In this document: in pieces, positions 6,552 through 64,000 of the stretch | Layout of the letters: each line of letters opens with the position of its first letter | Position numbering within the stretch: the stretch's first letter is position 1 | NCBI GenBank assembly: GCA_942491275.1 | Contig: CALNZI010000006.1 | Location: forward strand, 9,899-73,898 | Source of the DNA: Minisyncoccota bacterium | GTDB taxonomy: Bacteria; Patescibacteriota; Minisyncoccia; Phycocordibacterales; UBA9973 | Length of the DNA: 64,000 nt | Reading direction: 5' to 3' | Program-made: the position numbers and the translations under genes | The notes under the pieces: model-generated | What the model saw: only the letters and a program-made list of their open reading frames with translations | The model's database searches: none | Told to the model about the DNA's origin: nothing

Positions 6552-6878
6552 ATGGAATTAAAGGAATTTGCCGTAATTGAAACAGGAGGAAAGCAATATA
6601 AAGTCGCTGTGGGCGATGTTTTAAAGGTTGAAAAACTGAAAGGTGAATTTTCTACTGGAGATAAAATTATTTTTGATAAGGTTTTATTGGTAGATAATGG
6701 TAAAGACACAACCATTGGTTCTCCTTATATTACTGGAGCCAAGGTGGAATCATTATTTCAGAAAGAAGGGAAAGGTAAAACTGTCAAAGTTGTTAAATAT
6801 AAAGCAAAGAGTCGTTATCTAAAAACAAACGGGCATCGACAACCATTTATGGAAGTAAAAATCTCCGCTATAAAATAA
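6552..6878 (+). CDS. rplU: Ribosomal protein L21
   Basis: FAVIETGGKQYKV signature. Start set at ATG 6552, 7 nt after TATTAT (6539-6544). The track's upstream extension looks spurious. Confidence 0.9.
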   Translation: MELKEFAVIETGGKQYKVAVGDVLKVEKLKGEFSTGDKIIFDKVLLVDNGKDTTIGSPYITGAKVESLFQKEGKGKTVKVVKYKAKSRYLKTNGHRQPFMEVKISAIK

Positions 6879-33596: not shown

Positions 33597-33637
33597 TGTG
33601 CGTGTACTTGGAATCGAACCAAGGACCTCTGTCTTAT
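33597..33637 (-). repeat. Exact 41-nt duplicate of the 3' half of tRNA-Ile (anticodon loop to discriminator)
   Basis: 33597-33637 is identical to 33680-33720. Identity stops inside the anticodon (…GTCTTAT | aaatgg versus …GTCTTAT | caggac). Confidence 0.9.
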
Positions 33638-33681
33638 AAATGGAAGAGAGTTTCAAAACAAAAACAAGCTAACGTCCTCTG

Positions 33682-33753
33682 TGCGTGTACTTGGAATCGA
33701 ACCAAGGACCTCTGTCTTATCAGGACAGCGTTCTACCACTGAACTACACACGC
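33682..33753 (-). tRNA. tRNA-Ile (anticodon GAU), CCA not encoded
   Basis: Minus strand reads GCGTGTGTAGTTCAGTGGTAGAACGCTGTCCTGATAAGACAGAGGTCCTTGGTTCGATTCCAAGTACACGCA, which folds as a clean cloverleaf by hand. Confidence 0.9.
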
Positions 33754-59318: not shown

Positions 59319-60284
59319 TTATAAAATCAAGTTGAAAAGAAAACCTGTAAACATAATTCCAATAGCGACAATTCCAATAAAAATAAGGATTAATTTTGTT
59401 TTCATTACTTTCTTTAAAATCATAAACTCCGGAAGAGACAGAGCTGTCACTGACATCATAAATGATAGAGTCGTTCCCATGGCCACCCCCTTCTCAGTTA
59501 AAGCTGAAACAAGTGGAATTACTCCAGCCGCATTTGAATATAAAGGAATTCCAACTAAAACAGCCAGGGGTACAGCATACCATTTGTCACTTCCAGCATA
59601 TTGAGCCAGAAAATCAGCGGGGACATATCCATGAATCCAAGCACCTATTCCAATCCCAATCAAAACATAAATCCAAACTTTATTTAATATATTTAATGTA
59701 TAATTTTTAGCATAATTGAATCTTTCTTTTTTAGACATCTGAGGTAAGATTACATCTCCGTCTATTCTATTATCAAAAACAAAAGATTCCACTAAACTTT
59801 CCATCTTCATTTTTCCAATAATTATCCCAGATAGAACTGAAATAATAATTCCGCTAATGACATAAATAAGAGCAATCTTCCAACCAAACATCCCCAAAAG
59901 TAACACTAGGGCTACTTCATTTATCATAGGTGAAGCAATAAGAAAAGAAAAAGTTGTTCCCAGAGGAACTCCCGCTTGAACAAAACCTAAAAATAAAGGG
60001 ATGGCCGAGCAAGAACAAAATGGGGTAATTATTCCCAAAAGTGAAGCAAATAAATTCCCCACATATTCGTTTTTGCGAGATAATATAATTCGTATTTTTT
60101 CAGGAGGTAAATATGAACGAATAATTGAAACAATAAAAATAATAACAGTTAGTAGTATTAAAATTTTTAAAGTATCATAAATAAAAAAGTTTACAGCTCC
60201 AGCTCTAAGAGAGTCTGGAGTAATTCGAAAAACAGAATATGTTAGCCAGTCGGACAATAATTGTATGGGGTAAAAAAGATTCAT
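59319..60284 (-). CDS. UPF0718/YraQ-type permease
   Basis: Polytopic protein with the PFCSCSAIPLF motif typical of this permease family. Confidence 0.65.
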   Translation of the reverse strand: MNLFYPIQLLSDWLTYSVFRITPDSLRAGAVNFFIYDTLKILILLTVIIFIVSIIRSYLPPEKIRIILSRKNEYVGNLFASLLGIITPFCSCSAIPLFLGFVQAGVPLGTTFSFLIASPMINEVALVLLLGMFGWKIALIYVISGIIISVLSGIIIGKMKMESLVESFVFDNRIDGDVILPQMSKKERFNYAKNYTLNILNKVWIYVLIGIGIGAWIHGYVPADFLAQYAGSDKWYAVPLAVLVGIPLYSNAAGVIPLVSALTEKGVAMGTTLSFMMSVTALSLPEFMILKKVMKTKLILIFIGIVAIGIMFTGFLFNLIL

Positions 60285-60401: not shown

Positions 60402-60462
60402 GGCCCTATCGTCCCTGCCAGCCCTCGCGTACTCGAGAGCAGGCTGGTAAAGGTTAGGACAT
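60402..60462 (+). pseudogene. 5' fragment of tRNA-Glu (nt 1 to about 27) carrying a 34-nt GC-rich hairpin inserted in the D-loop
   Basis: GGCCCTATCGTC[CCTGCCAGCCCTCGCGTACTCGAGAGCAGGCTGG]TAAAGGTTAGGACAT versus the gene GGCCCTATCGTCTAACGGTTAGGACAT. Similarity ends where the anticodon stem would start. Confidence 0.75.
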
Positions 60463-60486
60463 GTATAATTAAATAGTCTAAGTTTG

Positions 60487-60558
60487 GCCCTATCGTCTAA
60501 CGGTTAGGACATCGCCTTCTCAAGGCGGTAATCCGGGTTCGATTCCCGGTAGGGTCAC
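60487..60558 (+). tRNA. tRNA-Glu (anticodon CUC), CCA not encoded
   Basis: GGCCCTATCGTCTAACGGTTAGGACATCGCCTTCTCAAGGCGGTAATCCGGGTTCGATTCCCGGTAGGGTCA. Manual cloverleaf with anticodon loop TTCTCAA. Confidence 0.9.
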
Positions 60559-60562
60559 AAAT

Positions 60563-60591
60563 TGACACATAAAGTAAACAATGTTATTATT
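60563..60591 (+). promoter_or_regulatory. Near-consensus promoter immediately after tRNA-Glu
   Basis: TTGACA-17 nt-TATTAT with the TG extension. Same layout as 28566-28594, which follows the orphan tRNA fragment. Confidence 0.6.
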
Positions 60592-60633
60592 TATATAATT
60601 AACGTTTATTTATGTACTTAAAAATATTAAATA

Positions 60634-61248
60634 GTGGAAACAAAAAATTATAATTATTTCTATGATGAAGATGGTACAAAGATAGTAATCAATGGATTAA
60701 AAGATTATCGAGAATTACCACAGATGTCTGCTGTATTGATTTTAAAAAACAATCAATACATAAGAGAAATGAAAAGACAAAAGTTGTCTTGTATTTCTAG
60801 CGATGTTATTTCCCCTGATTATAATGCAAGTGGTGCAATGTATATACTTTTTTCATATATACTTCATCGATTTGATTTTTATTTATCAGCTGAGAATTGT
60901 TTGGAAAATGAAGTATCTAAATACTTACAAATTTGTGAGGACTTGATACCTGAACTTTTGTATGAAGCAAAATACTACAATTATTCTCCGCAAGGAAAAC
61001 CGCCAAGGCTTTGTTCATATTTAGAAAATTATAATGAACTTCCAGAAAGAATAAGATTCTTATTTTTTCTATCGTTAAACCATGTTATCGGTTTACATCG
61101 CGGACTAAGTAGTTGTTTCTATTATGTTGAAAAATATTTTCAACTAGCAAAACACGAAGGAAGAGCTTGTAAAAATGAATTCGGAGGATCTGCCAATATT
61201 CTTCATAAATTATTTGATACATTTTCTTTTCCACAACAAAATTCATAA
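60634..61248 (+). CDS. Hypothetical protein (204 aa), Tyr/Cys-rich, cassette 1
   Basis: Long ORF with no family recognised. The start is uncertain (GTG 60634, with no in-frame ATG until codon 31). A terminator lies at 61262-61290. Confidence 0.45.
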   Translation: METKNYNYFYDEDGTKIVINGLKDYRELPQMSAVLILKNNQYIREMKRQKLSCISSDVISPDYNASGAMYILFSYILHRFDFYLSAENCLENEVSKYLQICEDLIPELLYEAKYYNYSPQGKPPRLCSYLENYNELPERIRFLFFLSLNHVIGLHRGLSSCFYYVEKYFQLAKHEGRACKNEFGGSANILHKLFDTFSFPQQNS

Positions 61249-61300
61249 GAATTATTAAGGCCTGCTTATTTAAGTGGGCTTTTTTATGCAACAAATTCCT

Positions 61301-61355
61301 TAAATCCCCTTATATTCTCTATAATCGAGTTCCAATAAATTACCCGTAGGGTCAC
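61301..61355 (+). repeat. R1: decayed copy of the tRNA-Glu 3' portion
   Basis: taaatccccttatattctctataatcgagttccaataaattaCCCGTAGGGTCAC. The end matches the tRNA 3' end CCCGGTAGGGTCAC. There are 4 mismatches to R2 over 55 nt. Confidence 0.75.
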
Positions 61356-61465
61356 AGCTTATTCTCATCCTTAACTAATAAGGGTTTTTTGTTAATTTTA
61401 ATATAAAATCTAATATGATATACTTAATTTAGAAATAATTTTTTTAAATAAATAATTTAATTATT

Positions 61466-61738
61466 ATGGAAACTAACGACAAATCTTTCAGAGTTTCTAG
61501 AGTTCTTTTATTTTATTGGGTAATTAGAGACTGGTGGTCTTCTAAAAAAATGTTTGTTCGTAGCCGTTTAAGATTAATTTGGGCACGTATCTATATACGT
61601 AAGGATGAATTCCATAAATCCTTAGATATGGATTTTGAGGCTCTTATGACTATGAAGGGAAAACAAAAAGAAAAATATCTTAAAGACCTATGCGACAGAA
61701 GAGAAATTGCTCACAGAAAAGAAATGGGTGATATGTAA
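61466..61738 (+). CDS. Hypothetical basic protein (90 aa), cassette 2
   Basis: ORF with the terminator AATAGCCAATAA..TTATTGGCTATT downstream. No family recognised. Confidence 0.4.
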   Translation: METNDKSFRVSRVLLFYWVIRDWWSSKKMFVRSRLRLIWARIYIRKDEFHKSLDMDFEALMTMKGKQKEKYLKDLCDRREIAHRKEMGDM

Positions 61739-61807
61739 GTATCATTTAAATAGAAACAAAAAATAGCCAATAATAATTTTATTGGCTATTTTCTTTACAT
61801 AGAATAC

Positions 61808-61862
61808 TAAATCCCCTTATACTATCTACAATAGAGTTCCAATAAATTACCCGTAGGGTCAC
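61808..61862 (+). repeat. R2: second copy of the R repeat
   Basis: Same 55-mer as R1, here followed by CCA-TG. Confidence 0.75.
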
Positions 61863-61943
61863 CATGTCGTGCTAGCACGAGAAGGTTATAAAATCAGTGT
61901 TTTAAAAGATTGAAATTTCGCACCCTTCTAGGAATCGAACTAT
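61863..61943 (+). repeat. S1: 81-nt direct repeat, left flank of the purM-like gene
   Basis: Starts with the palindrome TCGTGCTAGCACGA. Ends with GCACCCTTCTAGGAATCGAAC, which on the minus strand reads GTTCGATTCCTAGAAGGGTGC, a tRNA T-loop/acceptor-like end. There are 5 mismatches to S2. Confidence 0.8.
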
Positions 61944-62024
61944 TTTATATATAGACAGACTATGGATTTTGTGTTAATATTTATACAAAATTCGTAATAC
62001 TATTCACAAACAAATAATCTTAAA

Positions 62025-63236
62025 ATGGAAAAAGGTGATACTAACTATCAAAAAAGAGGCGTATCTTCTGGTAAAGAAGATGTACATAATGCCATTCAAA
62101 ATTTGAGTAAAGGAATATTTTCCAATTCATTTTGTAAAATTTTACCAGATTTTTTAAGTAACGACCCAGAATATTGTATTATTATGCACGCAGACGGTGC
62201 TGGAACCAAAGGCTCATTGGCCTATCTCTACTGGAAAGAAACTGGTGATATTTCAGTTTTCAAAGGAATATCGCAAGATTCAATAGTAATGAACATTGAC
62301 GACATCATGTGTATTGGTGCAACAAATGGAACAATTTTAATTTCTTCAACAATCGGAAGAAACAAACATCTCATTACTGGTAAAGTAATTGCTGAATTAG
62401 TAAACGGAGCTGAAGAATTTTACAAAATGCTTAGAAAATTTGATATTAGCATTGAAAGCTCTGGTGGTGAAACTGCTGATGTGGGTGATATTGTGAGAAC
62501 CTTAGTTGTAGACAATACAATTGTTTGTCGAGCTAAGAGATCCGATATTATTAATATCGACATTCAACCTGGTGATTATGTTGTAGGTCTATCCTCTTTT
62601 GGAAAAGCTTCCTACGAAGACACCTATAATTCAGGTATGGGAAGTAACGGACTTACCTCAAGCAGACACGATATTTTTGGTGGAGATTATATATTTAAAT
62701 ATCCTGAAACTTTTGATCCAATTCTACTAGAAAAATGCCATGAACTTGTTTATCGAGGAAAAAGAAAAGTTACAGATATTGTCGATGTTAATTCTAAGGA
62801 TAAATCATTTAATAACTTAGACTTCGGTAAATTTGTTCTTTCTCCTACGAGAACTTATGCTCCTATAGTGAAACAAATTCTCGAAAAAATTCCAAGAAAA
62901 AAAATTCATGGAATTATTCACAATTCAGGAGGAGGTCAGACAAAAGTTCTAAATTTTATTGATGGACTTCATGTCACAAAAGATTTAACAGGATTAGTTC
63001 CTCCCCTATTTAAGATTATTCAGAAAGAAACAAACACTAAATCCAATGAAATGTATCAAACATTTAATATGGGTTACAGGATGGAGTTTTATTGTGATAA
63101 AGAAACCGCAAATGAAATAATCGAAATAGCTAAGAGTTTTAATGTAAAAGGTGAATTAATGGGAAAAGTTATCCGTTCATCAAAAACAAAAGTCACCATA
63201 AAAAACGGCGACAACACTGAAACTTATGAAAAATAA
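62025..63236 (+). CDS. purM: PurM-like protein (AIR synthase family), cassette 3
   Basis: YQKRGVSSGKEDV, ADGAGTKGSLA, MNIDDIMCIGA, SSGGETADVG, LSPTRTYAPIV, HNSGGGQTK, MYQTFNMGYRM align block by block with PurM. A terminator lies at 63237-63275. Confidence 0.8.
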   Translation: MEKGDTNYQKRGVSSGKEDVHNAIQNLSKGIFSNSFCKILPDFLSNDPEYCIIMHADGAGTKGSLAYLYWKETGDISVFKGISQDSIVMNIDDIMCIGATNGTILISSTIGRNKHLITGKVIAELVNGAEEFYKMLRKFDISIESSGGETADVGDIVRTLVVDNTIVCRAKRSDIINIDIQPGDYVVGLSSFGKASYEDTYNSGMGSNGLTSSRHDIFGGDYIFKYPETFDPILLEKCHELVYRGKRKVTDIVDVNSKDKSFNNLDFGKFVLSPTRTYAPIVKQILEKIPRKKIHGIIHNSGGGQTKVLNFIDGLHVTKDLTGLVPPLFKIIQKETNTKSNEMYQTFNMGYRMEFYCDKETANEIIEIAKSFNVKGELMGKVIRSSKTKVTIKNGDNTETYEK

Positions 63237-63295
63237 CCTGCTTAACAGATCAACCTGTTTAGGCAGGTTTTTCTTTTTTATTAACCACCTTTCTA

Positions 63296-63335
63296 GTGCT
63301 AGCACGAGAAGTATTGGATTCCCGGAGAGGTCAAC
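63296..63335 (+). repeat. R3: extra half-palindrome plus tRNA 3'-end-like fragment
   Basis: GTGCTAGCACGAGAAG followed by TATTGGATTCCCGGAGAGGTCAAC, then CCA-TG and S2. Confidence 0.6.
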
Positions 63336-63416
63336 CATGTCGTGCTAGCACGAGAAGCTGATAAAATCAGTGTTTTAAAAAATTAAAATTTTGCACCCTT
63401 CTAGGAATCGAACTAT
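63336..63416 (+). repeat. S2: 81-nt direct repeat, right flank of the purM-like gene
   Basis: Aligns full-length with S1. The first 22 nt and last 24 nt are identical. Confidence 0.8.
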
Positions 63417-63525
63417 AAAAATTATTAGAAATACCATTAAGATGTATTATTACAAAAAAAATAATGCATACAAATTTAATCTGTATGCATTATATTATTG
63501 AGTAATTTACTTTTTACTTTTTACT

Positions 63526-64000
63526 TTAATTAAAATAAATTTTACTAATCTTCTCCAGAATTTTTTCTCCTGGGTCTCCTGGAATAAAAATACTCTCATC
63601 TACTTTATAGATAAATGATAAATTCTTTATCATTTTTTCATGATCATATTTCTCTCCTTGATTTCGAAAAAATGTCAAGAAAGCAGAACTAATAGCTCGG
63701 TCTCTAGGAATATATCTCCGAATATCAACAAGATATTCTATATACCGAGAGCTCCTTTCTTTATCTCTTATTTCAAATTTCCCACTCTGAAAGGCTTTAG
63801 CTGCGCTAGTTCTTGAAAGACCTGTAAAAATTTCAAACAACAATGTAATTGGAAATTTTGTTTTCTCAAGAGCTTTCTTTAGAAGAGTATAGTCTTCTAT
63901 CTCAAGAGAATGCCATGCATTCAAAAAATTCTTTGTTACCCACCTTCTTGAAGTTTTATTCAAATCAGCGATTAGTCTGACAATTTCCGTCTTACTACTG
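63526..64000 (-). CDS. Hypothetical protein, N-terminus beyond window edge
   Basis: The frame stays open to position 64000 (…SSKTEIVRLIADLNKTSRRW…), and the track TTG start at 63963 is internal. No integrase or other known motif is recognised in the visible 158 aa. Confidence 0.45.
   Translation of the reverse strand, partial: SSKTEIVRLIADLNKTSRRWVTKNFLNAWHSLEIEDYTLLKKALEKTKFPITLLFEIFTGLSRTSAAKAFQSGKFEIRDKERSSRYIEYLVDIRRYIPRDRAISSAFLTFFRNQGEKYDHEKMIKNLSFIYKVDESIFIPGDPGEKILEKISKIYFN

Follow-up and report, generated by a model that had tools for sequence, protein, structure and literature searches.

Direct repeats around a purM gene in a Patescibacteria genome and their relation to a neighbouring tRNA-Glu gene

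Introduction

In Dehalococcoides, tandem genomic islands at the ssrA gene (ssrA-GIs) are bounded by direct repeats of the ssrA 3' end together with an extra conserved flanking sequence, and 15 ssrA islands without integration modules were proposed to be cis-mobilizable (PMC3146451). Cis-mobilizable elements (CIMEs), considered together with site-specific accretion, keep both attachment (att) sites, attL and attR, have lost the integrase and transfer genes, and, when arrayed in tandem, are joined by hybrid att sites (Pavlovic 2004 and Bellanger 2011, in PMC5704250). Here we consider a stretch of 64,000 nucleotides from a bacterium of the candidate phyla radiation (CPR, Patescibacteria), called below the window, in which the purine-synthesis gene purM is bracketed by two direct repeats, S1 and S2, and an intact tRNA-Glu(CUC) gene sits 1.3 kb upstream of S1. 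A first-pass annotation, made from the letters of the window alone, had taken these repeats for the fossil of a tail-to-tail tRNA pair and purM for mobile cargo. In our opinion, with a probability of about 55%, S1 and S2 are composite junction copies that go back to the 3' end of the neighbouring tRNA-Glu and mark the boundaries of modules in a high-plasticity region anchored at this tRNA gene and made by serial insertion or accretion.

The repeats and the tRNA-Glu gene

The locus is laid out as tRNA-Glu, ORF204, R1, ORF90, R2-S1, purM, P'-R3-S2 and an orphan open reading frame (ORF). The parts of it on which the argument depends are as follows.

60404–60465 (approximately), plus strand: 5' pseudo-fragment of tRNA-Glu (GGCCCTATCGTC...TAAAGGTTAGGACAT) with a 15-nt match to the D-arm region, found upstream of tRNA-Glu in the related locus L092 too
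60486–60558, plus strand: intact gene of tRNA-Glu(CUC), called by ARAGORN and scoring 62.2 bits with the Rfam tRNA model; the anchor of the variable region
61301–61355, plus strand: R1, a 55-nt diverged copy (R55) of the tRNA-Glu 3' end, ending in GTAGGGTCAC and 93% identical to R2
61808–61862, plus strand: R2, the second R55 copy, ending in GTAGGGTCAC and then CA, delimited by repeat search and local alignment
61861–61943, plus strand: S1, made up of a b-box/palindrome (61867–61884), an AT-rich spacer and an inverted tRNA-Glu-like 3' end (61920–61940)
62025–63236, plus strand: purM, encoding 403 amino acids, with Pfam AIRS and AIRS_C both above their cutoffs
63283–63335, plus strand: P'+R3, made up of an a-box CCACCTTTCTAG, a b-box TGCTAGCACGAGAAG and a diverged tRNA-Glu copy from the T-loop to the 3' end
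63334–63416, plus strand: S2, the second copy of S, confined to this lineage

A repeat search of the window gave S1 and S2 as an 83-nt direct repeat of 94% identity with 5 mismatches, as many as had been counted at first in an 81-nt version that began 2 nt further to the right. The identical blocks between mismatches measure 24, 1, 20, 3, 6 and 24 nt, the last of them being the invariant 24-nt tail already described. The homology has its left edge inside the R 3' end (ACCATG) and stops at ...GAATCGAACTAT, and no significant similarity to the purM promoter region was found in the right flank of S2. Each copy opens with a palindrome, TCGTGCTAGCACGA, which is perfect over 14 bp as first reported, and the 16-mer GTGCTAGCACGAGAAG occurs three times on the plus strand of the window (61869, 63296 and 63342), the occurrence at 63296 being the extra half-copy of the palindrome block that had been noticed before R3. 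The 21-mer GCACCCTTCTAGGAATCGAAC from the invariant tail is present at two sites only in the 64 kb, where shuffled sequences lead one to expect 0, and within the window S, the P box and the S-end are present at the purM locus only.

Both copies of S are directly preceded by a tRNA-Glu-like 3' end, R2 finishing in ...GTAGGGTCACCA and R3 in ...GAGAGGTCAACCA, and this point of the first-pass annotation is confirmed by significant similarity to the real tRNA-Glu. In local alignments with 500 shuffled controls each, R1 and R2 matched the last 17–18 nt of tRNA-Glu (ATTaCCcGTAGGGTCAC) and R3 matched it from the T-loop to the acceptor strand; the scores observed for R1, R2, R3 and the reverse complement of the S-end were reached by 0–1 of the 500 shuffles each (0/500 for R1). 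The a-box and b-box of P'+R3 make an imperfect 22-nt palindrome. The intact tRNA-Glu gene, R1, the 5' pseudo-fragment and the running of the ORF after S2 off the end of the window had all been missing from the earlier description.

Read on the minus strand as GTTCGATTCCTAGAAGGGTGC, the tail of S has the form of a T-loop, T-stem and acceptor strand, just as had been proposed. Its reverse complement agrees with the tRNA-Glu of the window at 16 of 19 positions (GTTCGATTCCtaGaAGGGT). When 185,579 species-representative genomes were scanned with the 21-mer GCAYCCTTCYAGGAATCGAAC (Y at two sites), two matches were obtained, one being another R+S unit (L006, uncultured bacterium) and the other a chance match in GC-rich coding DNA, and no tRNA carrying the 21-mer of the S-end was found among these reference genomes. 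Since the tail matches tRNA-Glu at 16/19 positions and no tRNA of these genomes has the 21-mer, S is not a relic of a second tRNA species, and its tail is best read, by sequence comparison, as an inverted and diverged copy of the same tRNA-Glu 3' end. What stands of the proposed tail-to-tail junction is the geometry of a direct copy followed by an inverted one, which is real and recurrent at this locus; the partner is not a different tRNA. Neither ARAGORN nor Rfam gave a call on S; over the whole locus the Rfam models matched the tRNA-Glu alone, at gathering thresholds as well as at E up to 10. In viral contigs the 17-mer core of the S-end was met at the 3' ends of assorted phage tRNAs, including those for Thr, Met, Asn, Gln and Arg, and these matches are uninformative, being tRNA-like only generically, because they are generic T-arms. 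Scans of viral contigs with R55 and P'R gave 0 matches, and scans with the P box gave two chance matches only, in coding DNA.

Related loci

Related loci were those encoding the closest PurM proteins, to which L006 was added from the 21-mer genome scan. An orthologous tRNA-Glu lies upstream of purM in L001, L005, L088, L092 and L096, and the DNA between the two genes differs from locus to locus.

Window: two orphan ORFs
L005: about 340 nt of non-coding DNA, no island
L001: a 6.5-kb block with AAA_15 and type I restriction–modification (R-M) genes
L088: Mrr-nSTAND and AIG2 genes
L092: small ORFs and TerC
L096: purN and purL

A single R+S unit is placed directly upstream of purM in L005, L089, L098 and L102 (degenerate in the last), and wherever R+S precedes purM, S ends about 9 nt before a promoter-like block, TAGACA-17-TAATAT, which is kept in all relatives, including L001 and L088, where an island replaces S. 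Because a single orthologous S precedes the purM promoter in relatives, S1 is the ancestral 5' flank of purM. From a spacer variant common to S1 and S2 and seen in no relative, it follows that the copying of S2 took place within this lineage. The purM terminator, located inside the bracket as the first-pass annotation had it, at 63252–63269 with a T-run after it, is conserved in L005, L089, L098 and L102. In L098 an orthologous P'+R comes directly after this terminator (ACCTTCTAGAGCTAGCACGAGAAGGTTCGATTCCCGGTAAGGTCACCA), window positions 61850–63333 are collinear with L098 24–1506 with P'+R included, and purM is bracketed by R+S and P'+R in the same way as in the window.

In L006 the bracket R+S ... 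P'+R holds a different gene, a minus-strand orphan, and the flank after P'+R, with genes for T4SS-pilin, a substrate-binding protein (SBP) and a methyltransferase, is common to L098 and L006. Copies of R55 bound different cargo in L089 and L096, the order in L096 being tRNA-Glu, X (a structured element described below), R55, purN purL purM, R55, Trx3 ArsP, R55 and pilins. The loci that show these differences of inserts and cargo belong to distinct species, and a promoter under selection is placed just where the boundaries fall. Throughout the related loci, the repeat copies are met in tRNA-Glu, purM or pilin-flank contexts only.

In five relatives (L001:3406–3462, L005:9653–9711, L088:265–327, L092:1001–1059 and L096:143–199) the 3' end of tRNA-Glu, the terminator after it and a second, inverted copy of that 3' end make a long palindrome centred on the terminator. 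The sequence of the arms differs in each genome, and the arms are perfectly matched in most, with one mismatch in L092. The inverted copy in relatives carries an inserted 25-nt covarying hairpin, and the hairpin of the S spacer (CCTTAA..TTAAGG and a T-run) resembles the tRNA-Glu terminator of relatives. R+S looks like an older, diverged paralogue of this unit of tRNA 3' end, terminator and inverted copy.

Two of the blocks named above are defence-type islands, one at L001:3861–8603 with AAA_15 and type I R-M HsdS/HsdM, the other at L088:607–5364 with an Mrr_cat-nSTAND NTPase and AIG2; no integrase gene was found in either.

Proposed accretion at the tRNA-Glu gene

An intact tRNA-Glu at one end and direct repeats of the tRNA 3' end (R1, R2 and R3) bounding the DNA give this locus the arrangement by which islands and CIMEs are recognized. 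Its history probably began with repeated site-specific insertion at the tRNA-Glu 3' end, where each event would displace a partial tRNA copy downstream, and the inserted elements would then decay into modules devoid of an integrase, which amounts to accretion of CIME-like elements. In such a scheme R2-S1 would be attL-like and P'-R3 attR-like, P'-R3-S2 would be a hybrid attR/attL (attP-like) joint between two tandem modules, and the orphan gene after S2 would belong to the next module. A probable source of the inverted tRNA copy is palindromic (template-switch) extension of the hairpin of the tRNA terminator, after which the copy would have been multiplied together with the att region; such an origin is proposed because the palindrome arms differ between genomes and yet stay complementary.

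Several points weigh against accretion. No recombinase domain was found in the ORFs of the window between 56 and 64 kb or in the genes of L001, L005, L088, L089, L092, L096, L098 and L101, and neither an empty site nor a circular junction was found. At 0.5–1.5 kb and one gene each, the modules are unusually small. The recurrent junction after S could be explained by selection for the purM promoter 9 nt downstream, in place of a cut site of a recombinase. The sequence downstream of S2 was read only to position 64000, and a closing P'+R, if it exists, would lie beyond it. Finally, homology-driven replacement after DNA uptake could leave the same pattern and is a serious rival as far as the mechanism is concerned.

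When read as products of accretion, the repeats are att-type relics of a tRNA-anchored insertion hotspot, of a kind already known. The claim of a mobile purM derived from a fossil tRNA pair shrinks accordingly, because the repeats are the ordinary footprint of such a tRNA-linked hotspot.

purM and its host

By its sequence, the window gene is assigned to PurM (phosphoribosylformylglycinamidine cyclo-ligase) of the Bacteroidota-type long form ('AIR synthase related'). Its score with TIGR00878, 101.9 bits, is below the equivalog cutoff of 236, which is to be expected because this PurM is a long divergent subtype. The closest group consists of unnamed relatives, 70–81% identical; beyond it there are thousands of homologues of about 58–61% identity annotated as PurM or 'AIR synthase related', and every named match among them is from Bacteroidota. 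A metagenome scan with PurM gave only distant (≤57%) Bacteroidota-type loci, none with S or P. As for the host, AtpA of the window has 87% identity to a protein of 'Candidatus Pacebacteria', and its named matches all come from Patescibacteria, which makes the host a Paceibacteria-like CPR bacterium; the housekeeping genes elsewhere in the window are cysS, dnaB, gltX and atpA. Since the host belongs to the CPR while its PurM is Bacteroidota-type, these comparisons suggest an ancient acquisition of purM from Bacteroidota by this CPR clade. The gene was probably acquired through the tRNA-Glu hotspot long ago and is now fixed.

The divergence of PurM among relatives (70–81%) is compatible with vertical descent, because it parallels that of the core-gene product AtpA (about 75–89%). 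Compared with 49 ORFs of the window, purM has z-scores of -0.17 for GC, -0.09 for GC3 and +0.09 for codon likelihood, and the atypical composition that marks recently transferred cargo is not seen. The comparison of composition and codon usage having given no foreign signature (z about 0), and with the synteny of tRNA-Glu and purM conserved and S1 ancestral, the earlier view of purM as mobile cargo is not sustained; purM looks like a long-resident, host-adapted gene and no currently mobile cassette. Loss of purM by RecA-dependent recombination between S1 and S2 could occur, and it would be rare and inefficient because the longest identical blocks of the two repeats are 24 nt.

Most Patescibacteria were reported to be without de novo nucleotide synthesis (bioRxiv 10.64898/2026.06.21.733656); according to another report, with higher frequencies, a sizeable minority of them have it (PMC11608272). 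A gene labelled purD-like by the first-pass annotation is present at 1653–2954 of the same window, and purN, purL and purM are clustered beside tRNA-Glu at L096:650–6674. Together with the Bacteroidota subtype of PurM, this cluster suggests that a lineage usually devoid of purine-synthesis genes took them up long ago.

Structured elements near tRNA-Glu

A conserved multi-helix element of about 140 nt, here called X, is situated between the inverted tRNA-Glu copy and R in relatives.

L005:9700–9842: element X
L088:316–456: element X
L092:1048–1200: element X
L096:190–330: element X
L001:3451–3624: element X

RNAalifold gave 49 pairs for four sequences of X, 14 of them with compensatory double changes; 95% of cells are paired, compared with about 40% when partners are slid, and the covariation score was reached by 0/500 shuffles. 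The covariance model built from these four sequences found a fifth, independent copy in L001 with 63.7 bits and truncated copies in L098–L100, and no copy in the window, L006, L089, L101 or L102. In each genome the closing helices of X imitate the acceptor stem and the T stem of the resident tRNA-Glu. The 3' end of X is CACCA in L005 and L088, L092 and L096 having other tails. X had no match in Rfam and is a covariation-supported, unclassified structured element beside tRNA-Glu.

S itself was also considered as a conserved structured RNA, and this was rejected. RNAalifold gave 0 consensus pairs on an alignment of seven S sequences, and no Rfam covariance model matched S even at E up to 10, which makes a structured-RNA role unlikely. 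When P'-R3-S2 is folded as a single sequence, the fold is stable (z = -4.6 as DNA and -3.3 as RNA) because the palindromic boxes pair with each other.

Alternative explanations

The rivals are taken here in the order in which they withstand the data. In the first of them there is no site-specific system, and the locus was formed by homologous recombination or unequal crossing-over between short repeats derived from tRNA-Glu, with cargo being replaced between conserved flanks once DNA had been taken up by natural transformation; S2 would then be a by-product of unequal exchange between R2 and R3, with later replacement of the duplicated segment. We consider this account unlikely as a whole, although it is a real contender. 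The left boundary of S1/S2 inside the R 3' end (ACCATG) is what an R2 x R3 exchange predicts, an intragenomic origin is indicated by the spacer specific to this lineage, conserved flanks (tRNA-Glu and the purM promoter) delimit the islands in L001 and L088, and an integrase is seen nowhere. Against these facts, identical stretches of no more than 24 nt would make RecA exchange inefficient, and the right flank of S2 is devoid of the purM promoter trace expected from a simple tandem duplication. In addition, R55 and P'+R recur with unrelated cargo in several genomes and tRNA-Ile has a clean duplicate of its 3' half, both of which are typical of integrase events.

It is doubtful that purM is a cis-mobilizable cassette, with R+S...P'+R (or S1...S2) as its att pair, which a recombinase acting in trans could excise as a circle and reinsert at tRNA-Glu-type sites. 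The same bracket does enclose purM both here and in L098, and in L006, with a right flank identical to that of L098 in gene content, it encloses another gene; P'-R3-S2 has the architecture of an attP-like joint, L096 has its purN, purL and purM placed between tRNA-Glu and copies of R55, and a Bacteroidota-type PurM is found in a CPR host. However, a recombinase was found in none of the loci, no repeat follows purM in L001, L005, L088, L089, L092, L101 and L102, and neither a purM-less allele of the same species nor a circular junction was observed. The host-like codon usage of purM and its divergence, parallel to that of AtpA, also speak against a cassette.

Quite improbable, in our opinion, is a further possibility, that in this Paceibacteria clade tRNA-Glu anchors a gene-capture array, integron-like but unrelated to integrons, in which single-gene modules would be exchanged at composite sites of about 55–135 nt (R55 and P'-R-P-S) by a putative trans-encoded recombinase, and element X would be a part of the system, for example a folded att site or a guide or scaffold RNA. 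If this were true, the cargo of the array would comprise orphan genes, defence genes and even Bacteroidota purine-synthesis genes.

There is little to recommend the view of S as a functional cis-element, namely a terminator or insulator for upstream tRNA-type transcripts and an upstream or operator site of purM, duplicated because it is useful at gene boundaries. It would accord with the end of S 9 nt before the -35 box of purM, with the small hairpin and T-run of the spacer in relatives (S2 has CTGAT-AAA-ATCAG and then TGTTTT), and with the retention of a degenerate S upstream of purM in L102, where a NUDIX gene replaces tRNA-Glu upstream; the 14-bp palindrome could be a putative binding site of a dimeric protein. 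But the palindrome is not conserved, L089 and L098 having the b-box half only, the S alignment shows no conserved pairs, no plus-strand gene follows S2, and L001, L088, L092, L096 and L101 keep the purM promoter block without S.

That S2 is an assembly artefact, a chimeric join across a repeat common to two strains or loci, is very hard to believe. The source is a contig of a metagenome-assembled genome (a 100%-identical protein, P0001, is on one 156-kb NCBI contig), an orphan without homologues follows S2, and the 5 differing sites might be strain variants; on the other side, the P'+R before S2 is orthologous to that of L098 and continuous with purM, a diverged repeat of 83 nt is shorter than the read or k-mer spans typical of mis-joins, and in L006, independently, a minus-strand orphan gene comes after an S unit.

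The literal first-pass view, a convergent pair of tRNA-Glu and a different minus-strand tRNA, is largely refuted: the tRNA form of GTTCGATTCCTAGAAGGGTGC and the presence of its 17-mer core in real phage tRNAs are outweighed by the absence of the 21-mer from all tRNAs of the 185,579 genomes, where another S unit is the sole true match, by the lack of a tRNA or Rfam call on S, by an implied acceptor stem that would begin with C1, by tRNA-Glu itself being the best match, and by the inverted tRNA-Glu copies which relatives carry in the equivalent position.

Other features of the locus

The remaining features of the modules are given below.

60559–61300, plus strand: module 1, with a promoter-like site, the orphan ORF204 and a terminator-like hairpin
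60562–60590, plus strand: promoter-like site of module 1, TTGACA-17-TATTAT
60634–61248, plus strand: ORF204, an orphan with no family match
61356–61807, plus strand: module 2, with the orphan ORF90 and a palindromic terminator
61466–61738, plus strand: ORF90, an orphan with no family match
61758–61794, plus strand: palindromic terminator of module 2, predicted from sequence
61952–61980, plus strand: promoter-like site of purM, TAGACA-17-TAATAT with TG, 9 nt after S1
63252–63279, plus strand: intrinsic terminator of purM, a hairpin (63252–63269) and a T-run
63461–64000, minus strand: next module, with a terminator (63461–63493) and an orphan ORF running off the window end
63526–64000, minus strand: orphan ORF after S2, at least 157 amino acids, with its frame open to the window end

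For the orphan ORF after S2, neither a Pfam or NCBIfam match nor a homologue among 5.8 billion proteins was found, and no related locus examined encodes a homologue of cassette ORF 204, 90 or 145. The composition of the orphan ORFs deviates only mildly from that of the window ORFs.

The ArsP_1 permease gene is upstream of tRNA-Glu in the window (59319–60284) and downstream of purM in L001 (14880–15842) and L088. In L096 (7128–8090) it is downstream of purM as well, inverted relative to the window and placed between two R55 copies. These shifts of position indicate rearrangements around the hotspot.

A GC-rich hairpin at about 60416–60449 interrupts the 5' pseudo-fragment of tRNA-Glu, and the insert is conserved in L092 at 612–674. 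GC-rich hairpins of about 35–65 nt within tRNA-Glu-derived fragments were also found at L096:490–530 and 6772–6838, the genomes having otherwise 32% GC. Such inserts may represent a small mobile hairpin element.

In tRNA-Ile(GAU), on the minus strand of the window at 33597–33753, an exact 41-nt duplicate of the 3' half is located about 45 nt downstream. It spans from the anticodon loop to the 3' end, with 33720–33680 repeated at 33637–33597, and a terminator comes next. This duplicate is a classical att-type scar of tRNA integration, and partial duplication of a tRNA is therefore not unique to tRNA-Glu in this genome.

Significance

The locus documents a tRNA-anchored plastic region in CPR/Patescibacteria, in which the biology of mobile elements is poorly known. 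Defence islands and orphan genes turn over here between a tRNA gene and a conserved metabolic gene, and the presence of Bacteroidota-type purine genes inside the plastic zone offers a testable route by which a lineage with reduced genomes gains biosynthetic genes.

Comparison with known systems

Integron cassette arrays share with this locus single-gene modules standing in a row and structured sites of about 55–135 nt with imperfect inverted repeats. An integron array was nevertheless rejected, as there is no intI or attI and there are no R''(RYYYAAC)...R'(GTTRRRY) core motifs. Unlike in integrons, the order of the GTT.../...AAC boxes is reversed, GTTCGATTC being first and GAATCGAAC last in the junction, the modules have promoters and terminators of their own, and one module is on the opposite strand.

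Quasipalindrome (template-switch) extension of hairpins is a possible source of the inverted copies. The palindromes in L001, L005, L088, L092 and L096 resemble its products in being centred on the tRNA-Glu terminator and in having arms that differ and yet are complementary, whereas the copy in the S-end is diverged and no longer tracks the tRNA.

The Dehalococcoides ssrA-GIs differ from the modules described here, which are only 0.5–1.5 kb long with a single gene, are accompanied by an integrase in none of about ten loci examined, and have junctions to which an inverted tRNA end and a palindromic box are added; in addition, one of the bracketed genes, purM, belongs to core metabolism and is conserved across the clade. 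The locus shares with the ssrA-GIs an intact RNA gene and, after it, several modules that each close with a partial direct repeat of the gene's 3' end. Both also have further conserved sequence beside the repeat, many modules devoid of integration genes, and a gene content that varies between strains within a conserved outer synteny.

With regard to CIMEs, the present elements differ in being known from sequence alone, with no partner integrative and conjugative or integrative and mobilizable element (ICE/IME) with a matching integrase identified, and in belonging to a CPR host, where such elements are hardly described. The likeness to CIMEs is in putative attL and attR ends kept after loss of integrase and transfer genes, and in the joint P'-R3-S2, which resembles a hybrid att junction between neighbouring elements.

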